NCBI RefSeq assembly: GCF_035594765.1
Contig: NC_085846.1
Span: 93,297,190 to 93,361,189 of the forward strand
DNA from: Anolis carolinensis
Taxonomy: Eukaryota
DNA length: 64,000 bases
Direction: 5' to 3'
Shown here in pieces: positions 18,301-58,500 of the stretch. Position numbers and translations under genes: made by a program. Every line of letters starts with the position of its first letter. Within the stretch, counting starts at the first letter, position 1. The notes below the pieces were generated by a model, which was given only the letters and a program-made list of their open reading frames with translations, did no database searches and was not told the DNA's origin.

Positions 18301-20945
18301 AAGGATAAATAGTACTATGCATCAGCAACATCTGGATGGCCATACCTTCTCTGTCCTACTTCTGCAGTCTAGCTTTAATTTCCTGGTCTCTGAAACCTTG
18401 TGAGCTCCACGTTCCCTGAATTTCTACATTTTCTGCTCCAAGCAAAAGTACACTGCGTACATTCAGTAAGGGCGCATTGGAGCCCTTGGAGAACATTATG
18501 GCTTGGATTTCTGGGTTGTGCTCCCAAGTCTAAGCTCCATGTTGCAATACTCAAACAAAACTCCCATGTGAAGTGGTTTCTCCTTTCGTCTTAATGGATG
18601 GGCAACAGTATTTCTCAAGTCCTTATGCATAAAGAAGCTCTTGCTGATAAAGAGCCTCTGCAGAACTTCTAGCATTTCACAAATGAAAACCAGGACACCT
18701 GCGGCCAAGCAGCACCACAACGTGATCAGGATGACAAGAATCTTCTTGCTTTAGCAAGAATCTTCAGGGAAAGACAAGATTCTGCCTTCCTGTCCTCTCC
18801 CCACCACTAAGTTAATTAACTCACTGAGTGCAAACTACTTTTGTGCTTTTAAGTCAGTTTGCACCAAATGGAGGAAGCTGAGGAGGAAGGGTGGAAATGG
18901 GTGGAAGAGGGAGAAACTGGGAATTTGAAAAAAGTAAGGCAACAAGATTAATTGGAACTCAAGGGTATGGCTCTGTATACACTCTACAGCAATGGTTCTC
19001 AACCTGGGGTCCCCAGATGTTTTTGGTCTACAACTCCCAGAAATCCCAGCCAGTTTACCAGCTATTAGGATTTCTGGGAGTTGAAGGCCAAAAACATCTG
19101 GGGACCCCAGGTTGAGAACCAGTTCTCAAAATCAATGGTTCCCAACCTATGAGCCTCCAGGTGTTTTGGACTTCAACTCCCAGAAATTTCAGCCAGCTTA
19201 CACGCTGTTAGGAACTGTGGGAGCTGAAGTCCAAAACACCTGGAGGCCCAAAGGTTGGGGACCACTGCTCTAGAGTTTAGGCACTTCAGTTTAGGCAAAT
19301 GGAATAATTTTAAAGGGTTGTCATTGTTCTCTTTTTTTGTGAAGCATCCCAACTACCATACAATTGGCCCTCCATATACATAAATCCTGTTTCAGTGGTT
19401 CATCCGCAACATGAAAATACCCCTCCCCACAAAAAAATCCCAAAACAAACCATTTTATATAAGAGATACTATTTTACTATGTCATTGTATAATAATGGGA
19501 CTTAGGCATCCATAGATGTTGGTATCCTTGCGCTGTCTTGGTACCAAACCTCAATGAATACGAAAGATCTGCTGTAACTATTATGATGAATTGCAACAGA
19601 TATGAAATATTTGCAAATGATTAACTATTCTGATGACCTGAATCTGAATTATTCTTGTAGTTGCTTTGCATATCTTCAAGTTATTCAGACCTACGCTGGC
19701 CCCAAGGAGAACCTATTGTGGTTTTCTTGCTAAGATCTGTTCAGAGAACATTTGCTTTCCTCTGATGCTGAGAGAACATGATGCATCGAAGGTCATTGAA
19801 TGGGTTTCCATGGTTGAGTGAAAATTCAGACCCTGGTTTACCAGTGTCTTAGCCCAAAGCTCAAATGACTACACCACATGGCTCTCTTGAATTATCCTAC
19901 CAAATGCAATTCCTCTGGCTCAACTGGTTTGGGTTGTGAAGGGGACAAAATTAGATCTTAGTCTATTTATTTCCCTCTGTGTTTTTGGAACCAACTAGGT
20001 TTTATACAGGACAATTTCAACACAAGTAATTTCTGGACTCTAGAAGGAGAATCTTGGCACTAAACAATCTGTTTTTGATCATCTTCCATTGAAACCAATG
20101 AGATTTGTTGGGAACAAGTGTGTTTACAATTACAAAGGTGATTTTAATTTTCCAGTCTCAGGTTCCTGGTTAGCAGCTGACTGATCCAATGAGGACACAT
20201 GGTTAGTAACAGCACTCAGACCCAATTAATGGGGTCGGCATTTATTGAAAAGATGGACTTTTATATCCAAGTTGTGTATATGCAATGCAAATGTTTGGGT
20301 TTTTTATTAATATGTGGATTCTTAACTAAAATAGATATCTCCCTCGGACTTAAGGTCAAGAGTGGAGTATTAACCTTACAAAAACATCACTAGCTGCCAA
20401 CTTTAGAAGATCTGTGCTTTTCCTATATAGTTTGCATTTTAAATGTTCATTTTAGATATGTGAGCTGCTAATATGATTAGTGGGGCTAAAAAGACGTCAG
20501 GATATAAAATAAAGGATCTGAATGAGCTGCGTAGTATAATATTTGCATTTTGCAACTAAAGAGACAAAGCTTATTGGATGTAGTATCTGTTAGGTCTCAT
20601 TCATGTATGTATGCGTGTGTGTTTTATTTTTAACATGTAAACTTGAATAATGTTTTGGTAGAATGAGATTTACCCAGTAGAGTGGGAAAAGATTTGCAGG
20701 AAATTAAAAACGGATAAAGTAGCTTGGATTATTTTCTTTCTTTGTTTCCTTTTTTATGTAATTGTCACTAGAAAGTAATCAGTGATGGATATATAAGACA
20801 CTGTCCCTGATTTCTGTAATTAGATTTAGCTTTGATAACATTGTATGGAATAAAGCTGTGTGTGTGATCCTGACTACCAATCATTTTTCTACATTTGCTG
20901 AACAGGACTGTGTGCCTAATAAACTTTGTTGAGACAATTGCTCTT
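9347..20945 (+). other. CDK6: Probable long CDK6 3'UTR ending at distal AATAAA signals (20849-20854, 20918-20923)
   Basis: Repeat-poor, AU-rich, non-coding stretch after the stop codon, carrying miRNA seed matches and two AATAAA followed by GT/T-rich sequence. Mammalian CDK6 has a ~10 kb 3'UTR. The true end is inferred. Confidence 0.6.
18990..19267. mobile_element. Two tandem palindromic hAT MITEs (18990-19124, 19133-19267)
   Basis: CA(A/G)TGGTT TIRs; three 8-bp spacers ctctacag / ctcaaaat / ctctagag. Confidence 0.8.
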
Positions 20946-25412: not shown

Positions 25413-25606
25413 CAGGTATGGGCAAACTTAGGCCCTCCAGGTGTTTTGGACTCCAACTCCCACAATTCCTAACAGCCTCAGGCACCTTCCTTTTCCCCCT
25501 CAGCCGCTTAAGCGGCTGAGGGGGAAAAGGCAAGGGCCTGAGGCTGTTGGGAATTGTGGGAGTTGGAGTCCAAAACACCTGGAAGGCCTAAGTTTGCCCC
25601 TTCCTG
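25413..25606. mobile_element. Palindromic hAT (Charlie-type) MITE
   Basis: Loopless palindrome centred on cagccgctt/aagcggctg; perfect 8-bp TSD gtctatac (25405-25412, 25607-25614). Confidence 0.9.
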
Positions 25607-25826: not shown

Positions 25827-37273
<11,447 letters not shown>

Positions 37274-40196: not shown

Positions 40197-40393
40197 TAGG
40201 CCTGGGCAAACTTGGGCACTCCGTCCAGGCCTTTTGGACTTCAGCTCCCACCATTCCCAACAGCCTACCTCAGGCCCCTTCCTTTTCCCCCTCAGCCGCT
40301 TAAGCGGCTGAGGGGGAAAAGGAAGGGGCCTGAGGTAGGCTGTTGGGAATGGTGGGAGCTGAAGTCCAAAAGGCCTGGACGGAGTGCCCAAGT
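40197..40393. mobile_element. Palindromic hAT MITE, right TIR truncated; perfect 184-bp palindrome at 40210-40393
   Basis: The arms are exact reverse complements about 40301/40302; the ORF track gives identical peptides on both strands. Confidence 0.9.
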
Positions 40394-40431
40394 GCATTCT
40401 ATTCTTGGCCACGAGGAGGCCGGAGTTCTCT

Positions 40432-40445
40432 GTTGCCACGGTAAC
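40432..40445. promoter_or_regulatory. RFX X-box upstream of the calaxin ATG
   Basis: GTTGCCACGGTAAC fits GTNRCC-N(0-3)-RGYAAC, 22 bp before the ATG of a motile-cilia gene. Confidence 0.75.
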
Positions 40446-40467: not shown

Positions 40468-43400
40468 ATGAACAGGAAGAAGCTGCAGGAGCTGGCAGAG
40501 TCCCTTTGCAAGACCGCCAAGCACTGTGAGTGAGTGAACGCGAGGCAGGCCCACTTCCAGCCTCTCGGTATCTTTCATCCAGAAAGGATTCCTATCTTTG
40601 CGGCTCTTTCCTTCCTAGGTTTCTCTCCTAACCTCCTCCCTCTCTTTCCCAGTCACATGACAAGAGGGCCACTTCACCTGGCCACAGCCAATTTGCTTTA
40701 TTCCTTTCTTCCCTGTTTTTAATCATCGTCATCCCTTGTTTCGTAGTCAATAAATTTGAAGTGGAATGCCTCATCAAGCTCTTCCACACCTTGGAAGTGG
40801 AGCCCAGCGACCGATATGCTGGCATTGGCTTGGATCGCAACTCATTTCGAAACGTTCTCCATGTCACGTTCGGAATGACAGACGATATGATGATGGACAG
40901 AGGTGAGACTGAATACCTTTCTTGTAAACCTGTCTGTATTTAAAATATGTTACAAGTAATCGTGGAATATAATAATTATAATTTTATTATTGTACCCCGC
41001 CTCCATCTCCCCAAAGGGACTCGGGGCAGCTTACATAAGAAAACAACCCATCCACAACATAAATTAGCATATAATCTATACATTTAAAACACAATATAAT
41101 GACATAATTATAAAACAACATAACATGACAATTATTAAAACCAAGAAATCAATTGCTATGTACAGAGGGTGATTAGTGCAAAAATTCTGAATAAGATCCA
41201 TTACTACGGTAAATAGGGATGGGCGCGGAAGGCCAAGAAACCAATCACGTTAAAACACTAAAACCTATGTAACGGGGGCAATAATAAAGTGCTGCATGAG
41301 TTTGTAAACAAGATACATGGCTGGTGGCCTCTTCATTCAAATGCGCACCGGAACATCCATGTTTTTAGATGGAACCCCTGGTGGCACAGCGGATTGAACC
41401 GCTGAGCTGCTGAACTTGCTGACTGAAAGGTTGGCGGTTTGAATCCAGGGAGTGGAGTGAGCTCCCGCTATTAGCCTCAGCTTCTGCCAACCTAGCAGTT
41501 CGAAAACATGCAAAATGTGAGTATATCAATAGGTATCGCTTCTGCAGGAAGGTAACAACACTCCATGCAGTCATGCTGGCCATATGACCTAGGAGGTGTT
41601 TACAGACAAACATGCAAATGTGGGTAGATCAATACGTATGACCTTGGAGGGGTCAATGGACAACACCGGCTCTTCGACTTATAAAAGAAGATGAGCACCA
41701 ACCCAAGAGTCGGACATGACTAGACTTAATGCCAGAGGAAAATCTTTACTTTTACCTTACAAATAATCATAGATAATACTTTTGAAAATGTTTCTATTAC
41801 ATGTCTTTTAGGTAGAGTGATTAATGAAATCAGTTGGTCACTTACCGGTAATACTTTACAGTTGTGTGCCTCCTAGTCATATCTGACTTATGGAAACACT
41901 ATGACAAACCTATCAGAATTTTGGGGGGTGAATGCCATCTCCCATCAAGTCTGGGGGCAGGATCAGGTCAGCAAAGATTACACTGACCAACATGCATTTT
42001 GCTGCCTTAAATATTAGACCAGCATCCTGTGCATATTTGATCTGCTGATTCCAAAAATGACACCATTTTCCCCTACCAGCTCTGAGTTTTGAGATACAGT
42101 GTAGGAGACGTAGTTTTAAAAGGGAATTTTCATAGATGCAATAGACTGCAAGTCCCATATCGCCCGTTCATAAAAAGCCTTTGTCTGCAGAATCACTGAT
42201 GCTGGGAGAAAGAGTTGACACTGAGGTGGTTACTCTCAAAGATGAATCTAATCAGAGCAGAACTGAGTGGAGAGCACCCCCTGAATTTCCCAGCTGCTTT
42301 AAGTTTCTGCGTGAAACAGGGAAAGATATAAGACAAAATGAAAGACTATAATTGAGACCACGTGTTTGCTTTCTGCTTGTTAGAGTATAGAAATTTTGTA
42401 TTGGTCAGTATGCTTGTGACTTAGTCAACTTTAGACCAATGAGATAATTGATTATGATGCTCCTATGAGAATATGTTTGTGATTTTCTGTGAAGTGATAA
42501 AAACCCTTGCAACCATTTTGAGGGTACAGCAGATTCTTTTTATGCTCAAGAAACTTACCGTCATTTGCTTTGGTCAGCAAATAAAGCTTTCTTCAGAGAG
42601 ATTCAACTGATTGGTATGTCCTTCTGTGCCGCCTTTCTAAGCCAGAAGGGGACTTTTGAGAATATGAAACATGCATGCCCCTTCAATAGAACATATGCCA
42701 TATACTGGTCTCCATCTGCTTGCCTATAAAAATCATGATAACCATATCTAAGAAACTAGAGCTGATGCAGTCTATCCAATGCAATTTTCTGAATTGGTGC
42801 CCCAAATAACCCCCGGCCTAAAAACCTAAAAACCAAGAATGTTTGTTGTTGTTGGGCTGTGTTGTTAAATATACTTTAAATAATACAGTCCAACAAAAAC
42901 AACAAACCTTCTTGTAGTCTTGGTTTGTAGGCCTGTTCTGATTCAATGCACACCAACTTGGTTTCATGCATGTAATTATTTAAAATACTGTGTATAACAT
43001 TACACATAGTTATGTGTATATATATGTATATATAAAGGAATTTTTGTTTCATGCACAGTTTATATACATAGCCTAAGGATAGATTTAGACTTGCGTCCCA
43101 TCTCCCAAGATATCTCATATGCAATTACAGGAAGTCCGAAATCTGAAATAATTCAAAATCGGATAAAGGATACTCAACTAAGTAGCTGATAGTGAATTCA
43201 GGCCATTGTTAGTTGATACGTTCACACTTAGAAGTAAGTTCTGAGAATTCAGTGGATCTTATTCAACAGTATTCACACAAAATTGTATTAACATATAATG
43301 GGGAAGTCGTGTACCCCATCTCTCATTGAACTAATCTCTGCCAAATAGGGCAACGTACAGCGTGACAAGCATGTTTTCATTGCTGTGATGAGGCGAGCAA

Positions 43401-46400
43401 GATGACTAACTGCTAAAATGTAAAGCACAACGCAACTGTTTAAAATGTCACCAGAAGCTGTGTTTATAGAACCTCATAAACATGTTTTCAAAACTCCCAC
43501 TTGGTGACAAAGAATTATTTCCAAATCTGGCTGAGATCCAAAGTTGCTACTTTAGGTTCTCGGGGGCTTGAAAAGGCTTACTGGGATTTGGTTTCATTTT
43601 GAACATATGATCTAGCTTGCATGCCATATTGGAAAACTATTTTTGAAAGTCTCATAGTTTAAAAGGAATTGTGCCACAAAATTGAGACAAACTACCTTTA
43701 AGTGCTAAGTTGTTCCCCTTTTCTCTCAAAATAACTTAAAAATAATATTGCTGTAAGGAATTAAACTAGCTTATCTTCATGACTGAATAATCATAATAAG
43801 TACATCAAAATTAGTAAACTGTTCCCGGGAAGGGGGGCGGAAAGCAAGAAGGGAAATAATGTAAAATGTGTTACCAATGTTTTGAATGCTTGTATGATTT
43901 TGTGTAGCACTATATACAATAATTTTGTGTAGCACTATATACAGTGAAAGATTTTGCTGGTTGATAGTATTCAGTATTCGATGGTGCAATGAATAAAGAT
44001 GTTTGTCATTATTAATTTCAGGAGATGCTCTTAAGACTAGAGGGTGGTTGAAGAGCACTGGAGTTGATAGAAATAAGAAACCAAAACTGAACGTTGCTTC
44101 TCAATTCGGAGTGAGGAGGCAGAAAAATGCTTTGCATATGCTCAGAGGCATTCAAAATAAATATATCCAGTTTAAGAATTCTCCTGTTTGATTCAATCAT
44201 TATTGCTCTAAAGTGGAACAGTAACCTTTAATTAGATGGAACACATTATTCTTTATTTAACTTTTCTAATCCAGACCTACAACTCAGCGTTTTAAATGTC
44301 AATAAAAACATATATGTAAGCATAGATTGAAAAAAAAGGTAAATATCAATTGCAAAAGATTAGATTCCAGGTGCCTTCCGAGGTATGGTGGAGCAATTCA
44401 GCAAGAAGTGGTGGGCAAAGAATTGGGGCAGTTTTTGCACTCCTCCTCAGTGAAAACACGTGGACCACCAGAATTGGGGCAGTTTTTGCACTCCTCTTCA
44501 GTGAAAACACATGGACCACCAATGGGCACCAATAGCTGTGAGGAATGCCCCAATTCTGGCTTGTCACCACTTCAATTTCTTCGTCTATCCCCTGGAAAGG
44601 TAACTGGTTTCTCATTTTTTGCCTGCCTTTTGGGGAGTCACTTTGCCAACAGCTGATAGGAGGAATTCAGCCAAAACTGTCTCTCCAAGTAATGGATAAA
44701 GAAAGAAAACAAAATGTCTTTTTTCTGGACATGGCTAATAATATCCCCATTAATCTCAACTAGTTTTACTTCTGATTAGCTATGTGTAGAATTTTCTTGC
44801 AGATGATCTGTTGATTTGGCACGAATATTAATAATGAAATGCACTTTCTTCACCATTTAGTGTTCCGTGCTTTTGACAAAGACAATGACAGCTGTATCAG
44901 CGTAACAGAATGGGTAGAAGGCCTATCGATATTTCTTCGAGGAACATTAGAAGAAAAGATAAAATGTAAGATTTATGTAATCGTAGCAGATTTCCATGGT
45001 TGTCATAAATTATGTCAATTTATAGGACAAATCAAAGTATTTTAAAAGTATACAAATCATTTCATTAAGAAATAAATTGTTGAGAAATTATCTTGGCAGT
45101 AGAAGGTTTACAGCAAACATAAAATAAATGTAAATGTCTAAATAAATAAAAAGTCAGGTTGTTACTATGGAAGTAAAAAAGTCCAGCTTTAGGGCAAAAT
45201 GCAGCTAACCTGATTAATATATAGCATATAAAACTATAACAGTGTAAGATAAAACACAAGGAAATCCTTAAAAATGGAATTTACTAGAAAAGATTTTTGC
45301 ATTTTTTTCTTTAAATATAATAATGTCTAACTTTTCTTCAGATTACTCAATAACTGTTTTATAGTAACTCAGCTATCTTCTCTAAAGACTGCTTTGAGGT
45401 CTATGATATGAATAGTGATGGATATATATCACGAGATGAAATGTTTCTTATGTTGAAGAACGGCCTGGTCCAACAGCCATCGGACGAAGATCCTAATGAA
45501 GGAATTAAAGATTTAATAGAAATAACATTGAAAAAAATGGTATGTACCATAATTGAAAGACATTTCTTTTCAGATAAGAGTTGAATCCAGACGTCCCGCA
45601 GGGGTCAGTACTGTCTCCCATGTTGTTCAACATATACATGAAGCCGCTGGGAGAGATCATCCGGAGTTTCGGGGTGCGGTGTCATCTGTACGCAGATGAT
45701 GTCCAGCTCTGTCACTCCTTCCCACCTGTCACTAAGGAGGCTGTTCAGGTCCTGAACCGGTGTCTGGCCGCTGTGTCGGACTGGATGAGGGCTAACAAAT
45801 TGAAATTGAATCCAGACAAGACAGAGGTCCTCCTGGTCAGTCGTAAGGCTGAACAGGGAATAGGGTTACAGCCTGTGTTGGACGGGGTCGCACTCCCCCT
45901 GAAGACACAGGTTCGCAGTCTGGGGGTCCTCCTGGACTCATCGCTGAGCCTGGAGCCCCAGGTCTCGGCGGTGGCCAGGGGAGCCTTTGCACAACTCAGA
46001 CTTGTGTGCCAGCTGCGCCCGTTCCTTGGGAGGTCTGACTTGGCCACGGTGGTCCACGCTCTGGTTACAGCTCGTTTGGACTACTGCAACGCGCTCTACG
46101 TGGGGCTGCCTTTGAAGACGGCCCGGAAGCTTCAATTAGTACAACGGGCGGCAGCCAGGCTTATAACTGGAGCGGCGTACAGGGAGCACACCACTCCTCT
46201 GTTGCATCAGCTCCACTGGCTGCCAATATGCTACCGAGCCCAATTCAAAGTGCTGGTTTTGGCCTACAAAGCCCTAAACGGTTCCGGTCCAACTTACCTA
46301 TCTGAACGTATCTCCTCCTATGAGCCCATGAGAACTTTAAGATTGTCTGGGAAGGCCCTGCTCTCGGTCCCACCTGCCTCACAAGTGCGGCTGGTGGGAA

Positions 46401-55555: not shown

Positions 55556-58500
55556 ATGTGGGGAGCGGGCGGGCCTGGGGTCGCCGCCGCCAGCGCCTCC
55601 TTGAGCGGCGCCCGGGACTGCTTCCTGCACCTGCCGCCTGGCTTGGCTTCCAGCCTCCGTCTGCAGCAGGTACAGGAGGGCGGGGGCGGGGCGGCTGCAT
55701 CCGGGACTTCGCCTTCCATGTCCCTGAGGTGACATCCGGGCGCCCGTTTTGGGCTGACTCCTTCATAGCATCGCGTTGCCTTGGCAACAGGAAGGGCCTC
55801 TTCGTAGTGACCTTTCGTTTCCCACTTAGAGCAACTCTTTAAGGCAGACCTGGGCAAACTTTGGCCCTGTGTGTGTTTTGGACTTCAACTCCCACAATTC
55901 CTAACAGCCTCAGGCCCTTTTCTTTTCTCCCTAAGTTTAAGCGGTTGAGGGGGAAAAGGAAAGGGATTGAGGCTGTTAGGAATTGTGGGAGTTGAAGTCC
56001 AAAACACCCAGAGGGCCAATGTTTGCCCTTACTTCCTTAGGTGATCCGTTGTTGTCCGACTACGATGGCCTTCCAAGTGTAGTGTTTCGCTGGTGGGTAT
56101 GTAGGTGACTGTGGATCCCAATTCTTGACCTTCATGTTCTACCACAGTGAGGACATGGGTTTCCAAGTAAAAGGTCCCCGGTCAGGGTTGGCTTGATGCG
56201 CCTTCCACATGACACATTTCTCCATTTCGCCTTCCATTTGTGCCTCTTCGAACTCCACAGCACTGCTGGTCATAGCTGACCTCCATCCAGCTAGCGCACT
56301 CAAGGGCTTCCCATTTCTCAGTGTCTATGTCACAGTTTTTAAGGTTAGCTTTAAGCCCATTTTAAAATCTCTTTTCCAGTCCACTAACATTTTCCATTCT
56401 TGAGTTGGGAGTATAGTAACTGCTTTGGGAGACGGTGATCGAGCATTCGGACAACGTGGCCAGTCCAGCAGAGTTGATAGCGTAGGATCATTGCTTCAGT
56501 GCTAGTGGTCTTTGCTTCTTCCAGCACACTGACATTTGTCTGCCTGTCTTCCCAAGAGATTTGCAGGATTTTTCGGAGGCAACGCTGATGGAATTGTTCC
56601 AGGAGTTGAGTGTGATGTCTGTAGACGATCCACGTTTTGCAGGTGTATAACAGGGTTGGGAGGGCAATAGCTTTATAAACAAGCACCTCGGTATCCCTAC
56701 GGATGCCCTGAGCCTCAAACACTCTTGGAAAAATGCTGCACTCTCAGAGCTCAGGCAGTGTTGTATTTCAGTGTCAGTGTTGACTTTTGTGGAGAGGTGG
56801 TTACCAAGGTAGTGAACATGGTTGATATTTTCTAATATTATTTGCACCTGTAAAGCCACTGTCGGCCACCTCAGCCACAAAGGAACAGAACCTCTCAACC
56901 CAATATGGCATATTTCTTTACCAGTGTTCCCTTTTAACTAGTTAAAATCTTCTGTTTCAGTTTTTATTGCATACCAGTACTGGCTGTGCTATACTGAGCA
57001 ATGCAGTTCTGTAACATTTCCGAAAACAGGCCACACTAGTTCTATAATATTGTTATTGATTCAGTATCAAGTCTTAGTTCAAAACAAAGGACCATTAGGG
57101 TTGTTGTATGTTTTCCGGTCTGTATGGCCATGTTCCAGAAGTATTCTCTCCTGATGTTTCGCCCACATCTATGGCAGGCATCCTCAGAGGTTGTGAGGTA
57201 TGGAGAAACTAAACAAGGAAGGTTAATATATATCTATGGAAAGTCCAGGGTGTGAGAAGAACTCTTTGTCAGTTGGAAATCCAGTGTGAATGTTGCAGTT
57301 AATCACCTTAATTAGCATTAGAAAGGTTCATCTCCTGGCTATTTCTGCCTGGGGGCATCCTTCGTTCAGAGTCATTAGCTGCCCTTGGAACTCTTCTGTT
57401 TTCAGAGTGTTGCTTCCTATTTACTGTTCTGATTTTTGAGTTTTTTAATACTGGTAGCCAGATTTTGTTCATTTTCATGATTTCCTCTTTTCTGTTGAAG
57501 TTGGCCACATGCTTGTGAATTTCAATGGCTTCTCTGTGTAGTCTGACATGATAGTTGTTGGAGTGGTCACGCATTTCTGTGTTCTCAAATAATATACTGT
57601 GTCCAGGTTGGTTCATCAAGTGCTCTGCTATGGCTAATTTCTCTGGTTGAGTTAGTCTGCAGTGCCTTTCATGTTCTTTTCTCAAGTCATGAACAAGGTA
57701 GCATTTTTAAGTGTAACTCCAGTCAAATGTGCACAAACATACATACATATATAGAGAGGGGGGGGGGGAGAGATCTAGTGCTTTGGATAGATTAGGAAGG
57801 ATCTGAGACAGACACATATTCATTTGTATGCATAAATTTGCTTCCGCTGGTGAAAGGGATAGGCAATCTCATTGATAGAATCTGTAAGGAAAAGGTTCAG
57901 AGAAAACAAGAAAGCAGAAACTCTTCTGGAACATTAACATGTTCTGGGAAATGTAAATACTCAATAGATAATCATTCATAGACTCAATAAGTTACATCTG
58001 TACTGTGTCTCTAGTCACACATTGATGGCCAGACAAAGAATAGTGAGTGATGCATGCTGTTAATCTCCCTCTCTTTCTCTCATTTTAAATGGAATTAACA
58101 GGATCAAGCTGTGAAAACTTCCTGGGACAATCAGACTGTGTTCCTGGGCTGGACAGAAATCAGACGTTGTCAGTGTAGTGGCAACATTGTTGAAATAAAC
58201 AGACAACTAGCAGAGAAACTGGGCATCAAAGATGGGCAACAGGTTTGAAATTCAGAATATAATTTTTTGAAAGTTTGAATACTATCAATCGCTTTATCTA
58301 AGATCAGTTGACATGGCCTTGATTCAGGAAATCTAAAGAACAGTGTAAAGAATTAAGACAAAATGGAAATGGAAGAAATGAATAAATGACTTTGAAAATT
58401 GATCTGTATGTTCATTTGTTCTTTTTATTTATATGTAAGTCTTTCTCCTTTTGTATCCATTAAATATTCAGGTTCCAAACTGGAGATCCTTCTGTACAAT

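Follow-up and report, generated by a model that had tools for sequence, protein, structure and literature searches.

The palindrome located immediately upstream of calaxin in Anolis carolinensis is a copy, truncated on its right side, of a palindromic MITE of the hAT type that is 194 bp long. We consider it likely that the two arms of this copy were made identical in place by arm-to-arm copying, that the same process operates throughout the family, and that it is probably neutral for calaxin. Most likely, in-place copying of the arms reached a neutral end state in the calaxin palindrome, which deletion is at the same time removing. Copying in place had been proposed in the initial annotation, and it is supported by mirrored changes that are family-wide, private to individual loci and not tree-like.

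As annotated, positions 40210–40301 and 40302–40393 are exact reverse complements (92 + 92 bp, with no spacer), the palindrome ends 38 bp before an X-box-like motif and 74 bp before the calaxin ATG (40468), and the right TIR tip is missing; the TSD is missing as well. The second-longest exact palindrome within the 64-kb window (the whole stretch of DNA analyzed) has arms of only 21 bp. The DNA folding energy of the calaxin palindrome was –136.6 kcal/mol (z = –24), and none of 200 shuffled sequences folded equally well. The gene 3΄ of the palindrome was assigned to calaxin (EFCAB1/CLXN) by its coding exons, and exon 2 matched four PDB calaxin sequences (best E = 1.7e-15). The motif at 40432–40445 resembles the RFX X-box consensus. 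Table 1 lists these features together with the two sister copies in the window. Promoter-like DNA was observed beside all three full family copies of the window, and a second X-box-like motif (55775–55788), separated by about 56 bp from the 55845 sister, borders a CpG-island-like stretch. No family copy adjoins the CpG-island-like stretch at 45901–46300, and the calaxin promoter itself failed the CpG-island filter used.

Table 1. Features of the calaxin palindrome locus and family copies in the window (positions within the window)
Feature	Position	Strand	Support
Left TIR tip of the MITE, unpaired, partner on the right gone, first base off consensus	40197..40209	+	Alignment to family consensus
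Left palindrome arm, with two 4-bp insertions, five substitutions and symmetric site 74	40210..40301	+	
Right palindrome arm, reverse complement of the left; element truncated at 40393	40302..40393	-	Junction contigs in runs X1, X12, X18
8-bp direct repeat, copy 1, in TIR tip outside the palindrome	40198..40205	+	
Inverted copy of the TIR-tip 8-mer, completed by a double substitution	40225..40232	-	
8-bp direct repeat, copy 2, in right arm, mirror of 40225–40232	40371..40378	+	
173 bp absent from the second allele, joint 40197 to 40371	40198..40370		Runs X1, X15
RFX X-box-like motif (candidate), on both alleles	40432..40445		Motif match
Calaxin (EFCAB1/CLXN) coding exon 1 (putative)	40468..40525	+	Sequence, boundaries by eye
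Calaxin coding exon 2 (putative)	40747..40902	+	PDB calaxin match over 40755–40901
Sister copy, full length, exact 8-bp TSD, three mirrored substitutions, adjoins CpG-island-like stretch	25413..25606		
Sister copy, decayed centre, four mirrored substitutions, adjoins CpG-island-like stretch and second X-box-like motif	55845..56036		

We sampled the family with a two-anchor pattern, which gave 1,634 matches in the genome compared with 8 for control patterns, and with a single-arm anchor, which gave 3,555. Inspection by eye of the first 50 two-anchor matches showed five to be different elements and one to be chimeric. The fetched matches yielded 235 distinct two-arm copies; three with less than 80% identity were dropped, and 26 that had been selected by BLAST were excluded from most statistics, leaving 206. 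The family consensus is 194 bp long, a length that excludes a transposase, and is palindromic except at arm site 74, where one arm has C and the other T. Its TIR starts with CAGGC, which agrees with YARNG ends at positions 1–4 and has C at the fifth position. A recognizable 8-bp TSD (at most three mismatches) flanked 96 of 139 copies with intact ends, 20 of them exactly, with the preference N-T-C-T-A-G-A-N. The remaining 43 lack a recognizable TSD although their TIRs are intact. Mismatches at the outermost TSD positions are about twice as frequent as at the other positions, a pattern that suggests additional damage to the element ends. Sibling palindromic MITE families, represented in the window at 26040–26172, 1947–2083 and 19133–19272 and elsewhere by L035 and L038, have the outer arm in common and differ in their centres. 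Half units of the MITE also form tandem arrays (L288 at G000:C6:295,795–298,130, and on G000:C1 near 55,400 and 1,828,600), which represent a satellite growing out of the element.

Both arms of the calaxin copy have C at site 74, and both contain two 4-bp insertions as well as five substitutions. Each of two variant motifs matches only the calaxin locus in the 1.85 Gb genome, which argues against the distinct young subfamily that had been offered as an alternative. We rejected such a subfamily, as no dispersed near-identical copies with the variants were found; the one recurrence was that of the second 4-bp insertion, which four further loci also contain. An element-wide genome search returned other copies with 83–89% identity over most of the length and one partial match of 93% (40 of 1,741 candidates scored). 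No more than two of the five mirrored substitutions were common to any of 231 other copies, and the closest sampled neighbour was 8.2% distant. The sister copies had been described as asymmetric, and single-arm changes are present in both, although the copy at 25413 also has three mirrored substitutions and that at 55845 four. Among the variants annotated for the calaxin copy, ccaccatt is the family consensus, from which the sisters deviate. Exact arms of 96–97 bp were found in 2 of the 206 sampled copies, and arms exact over at least 65 consensus positions in 31; the calaxin copy therefore falls in the tail of this distribution, in the top 1–2% of sampled copies. The allele 31C at its double-substitution site (40225–40232) occurs in none of the 206, and the 8-mer copy at this site likely originated from a short local template switch out of the TIR tip.

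Mirrored substitutions were observed in 187 of the 206 copies, with 600 mirrored and 1,084 single-arm changes (anchors and site 74 omitted, and positions 1–25 masked in 34 damaged copies). When arms were permuted between copies (1000 times), the mean number of mirrored changes was 80 and the maximum 105. Even among alleles private to one sampled copy, 10 of 45 were mirrored, compared with 0.11 expected. The mirrored share differed strongly among copies (chi2 = 460, 205 df) and decayed little with distance (from 0.38 to 0.29). Together these results suggest long copied tracts, as template switching rather than stem mismatch repair would leave, yet site 74 is skipped in most contexts (see below). 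Mirroring was also more frequent for W>S than for S>W alleles (0.50 versus 0.27 per allele, P = 3e-4), and this excess hints at biased repair. None of the 30 commonest single-arm variants was in fixed phase with site 74.

We compared in-place copying with the possibility that mirroring occurs only at transposition, either through gap repair or through Angel-type fold-back amplification. Mirrored variants would then descend from numerous source copies, and the calaxin copy would be young, with its source lost. This is distinctly improbable. The 206 copies carried 179 distinct mirrored haplotypes, the distance to the nearest neighbour had a median of 6.0% and a minimum of 1.6%, and no closer, near-identical pair was found among 232 copies. 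After correction, only 1 of 207 allele pairs was in linkage, and 228 of 457 allele pairs were tree-incompatible, the level of column shuffles (231 ± 9). The family thus looks star-like, with subfamily structure nearly absent. The mean r2 slightly exceeded that of shuffles (0.0064 versus 0.0049 ± 0.0004), and this small linkage excess is in line with inherited mirroring, as is the rarity of mirrored changes in the TIR tip, which would be expected if source elements needed intact ends. The second 4-bp insertion also speaks for inheritance: L272 and L274 each have it in both arms, although the arms of L274 are otherwise diverged, and two half copies have it as well. A small source lineage probably passed on a few mirrored variants, this insertion among them.

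The ages of the copies and the state of their ends also argue against inheritance from transposition alone. TSD pairs differed at 124 of 768 sites (16%; 43 of 139 intact-end copies with more than three TSD mismatches left out), compared with 158 of 4,697 (3.4%) in the inner arms (positions 41–90), a contrast that faster mutation of TSDs and TIR tips might inflate. TSD mismatch and arm mismatch were not correlated. Moreover, 13 copies had no arm mismatch over positions 11–97 (site 74 aside), and the TSD was intact in only one of them; decayed TSDs in the most perfect copies are not expected if symmetry dates from insertion. In L176, both TIRs have been replaced by one and the same non-TIR sequence, so that this copy, like the calaxin copy, lacks working ends. 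Mirroring extends into 16 bp of flank at L110 and 13 bp at L094, which could be insertions into older palindromes. A conversion test on the first flank base gave 18 versus 7 at the first TSD position, and 9:9, 8:6 and 6:14 at the other positions. Duplicated copies with clean shared flanks, sought as stand-ins for orthologues, were absent among the flank matches listed, all of which were repeats of 74–87% identity.

The main rival to in-place copying, which can also act alongside it, is repair of central breaks from other family copies. According to this explanation, such repair overwrites the interior with sequence of the donor, which brings along the asymmetry at site 74 and alleles that are already mirrored, and arm-to-arm copying is rarer and only seeds variants. 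Several observations would fit: the mismatch between arms drops from 15–23% at the TIR tips to 7–11% at positions 6–32 and 3% in the interior, common alleles are near linkage equilibrium, central breaks are common (see below), and inter-element recombination has been reported in anole hAT families (in the available text of PMC3014272). The allele 59C, for example, was present in 50 copies, in 49 of them mirrored, and was associated with the first 4-bp insertion (18/35 versus 27/147); the few very common alleles and the small divergence of inner arms from the consensus suggest that exchange between copies or inheritance occurred as well. However, repair from other copies alone cannot create mirrored alleles private to one sampled copy, mirrored non-TIR ends or flanks, or the genome-unique motifs in both arms of the calaxin copy. 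As the principal cause of the symmetry, we regard it as unlikely.

Repair from other copies could also explain both the highly conserved interior and the persistence of the mismatch at site 74. This site was asymmetric in 134 of the 206 copies, including 9 of the 13 otherwise perfect ones (L176 among them), and such asymmetry is not predicted by uniform arm-to-arm copying. Site 74 lies 24 bp from the centre (position 25486 of the window and its mirror in the sister copy at 25413). Where symmetric, it was CC in 35 copies and TT in 36, with no G/C bias. It was symmetric in 13 of 17 copies with a mirrored variant at positions 66–73, and was otherwise skipped. We considered whether survivor bias could underlie the asymmetry and found no support for this, since symmetric copies were not enriched for other inner mismatches (none in 43/71 versus 76/135 of the remaining copies).

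The two-anchor sample favours converted copies, and we therefore also used the single-arm matches listed for the first 19.4 Mb of contig C1, which comprised 23 places in the two-anchor set, 46 others and 10 tandem-array units. Of the 46 places, 40 were fetched (L290–L329). In 33 of these 40, the match to the consensus stops at positions 93–103, at most 6 bp from the centre, so that 33 of 63 places examined were centrally broken. These 33 copies comprised half elements (arising by deletion or a long insertion), central deletions and central insertions. Both arms were present in 18 of the 40 missed copies; of the 127 changes counted there, 92 were single and 35 mirrored, and 16 of the 18 had one or more of the mirrored kind. 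Mirroring is consequently not a product of the anchors, although the main sample overstates it (35/127 versus 42%, over position ranges that differ). In addition, a 6-bp central duplication recurs in five sampled copies. L301 and L303 (G000:C1:1,619,963 and 1,658,391), located about 38 kb apart, contain a similar 71-bp central insert in opposite orientation and are probably an inverted duplication.

These observations point to a mechanism in which a MITE copy would form a hairpin or cruciform in germ-line cells, and one arm would be copied onto the other, with some G/C bias, by polymerase template switching or by stem repair. Cleavage of the hairpin tip would produce the central breaks, and slippage across the hairpin between 8-bp repeats would produce a short allele. 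In a broader form, which we advance tentatively and hold to be somewhat less probable than its negation, the thousands of spacer-less palindromes of about 200 bp are recurrent germ-line hairpin or cruciform hotspots, of which roughly half have been broken at the tip, and the survivors have been repeatedly self-corrected in place with a G/C bias, the mismatch at site 74 being specifically spared or restored. The rates of germ-line folding, breakage and self-correction are hard to measure for short vertebrate palindromes, and thousands of near-identical MITE substrates, each with a TSD clock, could allow such rates to be estimated within a single genome, along with positional gradients and the bias of repair. 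If the hotspot reading is true, the family amounts to a natural assay, on the scale of a population, of mutation driven by hairpins, and the calaxin locus stands between perfection and loss. Arm identity or divergence from the consensus would also underestimate the age of palindromic MITEs.

The palindrome stretch was present in 20 public runs from 7 studies, no RNA run being among those listed; the runs that we compared were contigs. In run X1, depth was 10.6 at the left junction and 8 at the right junction, and a single exact arm contig shared by both (40210–40261) had a depth of 18.2. A contig ends at 40239 in run X3 and another starts at 40364 in run X12, in each case 30 bp inside the palindrome end. 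Both these ends and the summed depth in X1 fit the merging of identical arms. For the outer 52 bp of each arm, the assembly artefact that the initial annotation had considered is thus unlikely, although X1 or another run may derive from the assembled sample. That symmetry was introduced by assembly or polishing could be argued from the facts that no listed contig spans the whole calaxin element, that the run with the best match may itself come from the assembled sample, and that read support was obtained at the calaxin locus only. Yet the outer 52 bp assembled in X1 as one exact contig at the summed junction depth, the contig ends in X3 and X12 fell as predicted, and polishing would have erased the asymmetry at site 74, which 134 of 206 copies retain, so that an artefact is scarcely credible.

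Contigs also pointed to a second, shorter allele. We scored the deletion in runs X1, X12, X15 and X18 (X3, X4 and X11 left out), and two of these four (X1 and X15, from two studies) contained a joint of 40197 to 40371 with eight shared letters. The joint was supported at a depth of 7.9 in X1, with 22 letters on the short side, and at 4.4 in X15, with 48 and 38 letters; this joint of the 173-bp deletion was not seen in X12 (depth about 38) or in X18, where a contig covers 40342–40460 and the left flank is absent. It is possible that the joint reflects library slippage. The deletion takes out the palindrome and spares the X-box. We rejected the idea that the short allele is the empty pre-insertion site, since 23 bp derived from the MITE are retained in it and the edges of the gap are not TIR termini. 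Hairpin-stimulated deletions typically occur between short direct repeats, one outside the palindrome and one just inside it. The 8-bp repeats at 40198–40205 and 40371–40378 are arranged in this manner. The second repeat owes its existence solely to the double substitution, through which the inverted copy of the TIR 8-mer became complete; in the order that we infer, mirroring followed.

We further considered whether selection maintains the palindrome for calaxin regulation, be it as a cruciform, a dyad site or a hairpin RNA. The X-box is only 38 bp away, the perfection of the arms is in the top 1–2%, and homogenization of inverted repeats can alter expression in yeast, as described in the available text of PMC13100816. 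In addition, mirroring increased weakly with the CpG count of the flank (rho = 0.20, P = 0.004; 172/336 versus 403/1,033), and a weak promoter effect on mirroring is possible. However, about 15 equally perfect copies are expected among about 1,500 two-anchor copies, CpG-island-like DNA was found near 32 of 65 long loci, so that proximity to promoters is common, and an allele without the palindrome was present in runs of two studies. An Rfam search of the palindrome, which counts against selection as RNA, gave 46 generic hairpin matches, none of which reached the gathering threshold. The selection for a hairpin or dyad site envisaged in the initial annotation, or any calaxin-specific role, is therefore very improbable, given that mirroring is family-wide, 2 of the 206 copies have similarly exact arms and a palindrome-less allele appears in two studies. 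In our interpretation, the calaxin palindrome records mutation that acts across the genome and is nothing peculiar to calaxin, and changes in such elements that look compensatory need not imply selection on a hairpin. The natural short allele offers a ready test of the effect of the palindrome on calaxin, which is probably neutral.

Finally, we compared the family with known systems. Non-autonomous hAT families of A. carolinensis (PMC3014272; for example, hAT-N1_AC, hAT-N5_AC and hAT-HT2N) are similar in having 8-bp TSDs with a NTCTAGAN-like preference, CAG termini (the ends of hAT-N5_AC are listed as CAGGS), no coding capacity and more than 1000 short copies. In contrast, no row of Table 1 in that paper combines a length of 194 bp with a matching TIR, and the word 'palindrome' is absent from its available text; the family may already be named in Repbase or Dfam. 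Angel and other palindromic MITEs, for which a fold-back model is described in the accessible portion of PMC5172404, are likewise hairpin-shaped and involve fold-back of a nascent strand. That model ties fold-back to amplification, whereas the data for the anole MITE point to copying after insertion, and its 8-bp TSDs point to ordinary hAT transposition. In Galileo foldback elements (PMC2775673, Table 2), TIRs within a copy are sometimes far more similar than those between copies, as in our family, but Galileo belongs to the P superfamily and has long TIRs, a spacer and few copies.

Long palindromes of the Y chromosome, Caenorhabditis inverted repeats and mouse transgenes, as covered in the available parts of PMC1803023 and PMC7999016, resemble the MITE in the concerted evolution of their arms, in extrusion from the centre and in stabilization by central asymmetry that arises through deletion. 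They are, however, a few kilobase-scale repeats, whereas the MITE has 97-bp arms, no spacer and thousands of dispersed copies. A parallel in mechanism is template switching between the arms of inverted repeats (the Ripley model; the available text of PMC13100816 and PMC10710096), in which one arm is copied onto the other, changes are clustered and mirrored, events occur near promoters, and copying occasionally extends past the original repeat. Our search of the literature, which lay mostly outside subscription papers, found no report of family-wide in-place mirroring in a vertebrate MITE. The studies of inverted repeats compare strains or species at single loci, whereas the MITE provides hundreds of copies, a G/C bias and one spared mismatch. 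The mechanisms involved are known, and their record at the scale of a family may be new.
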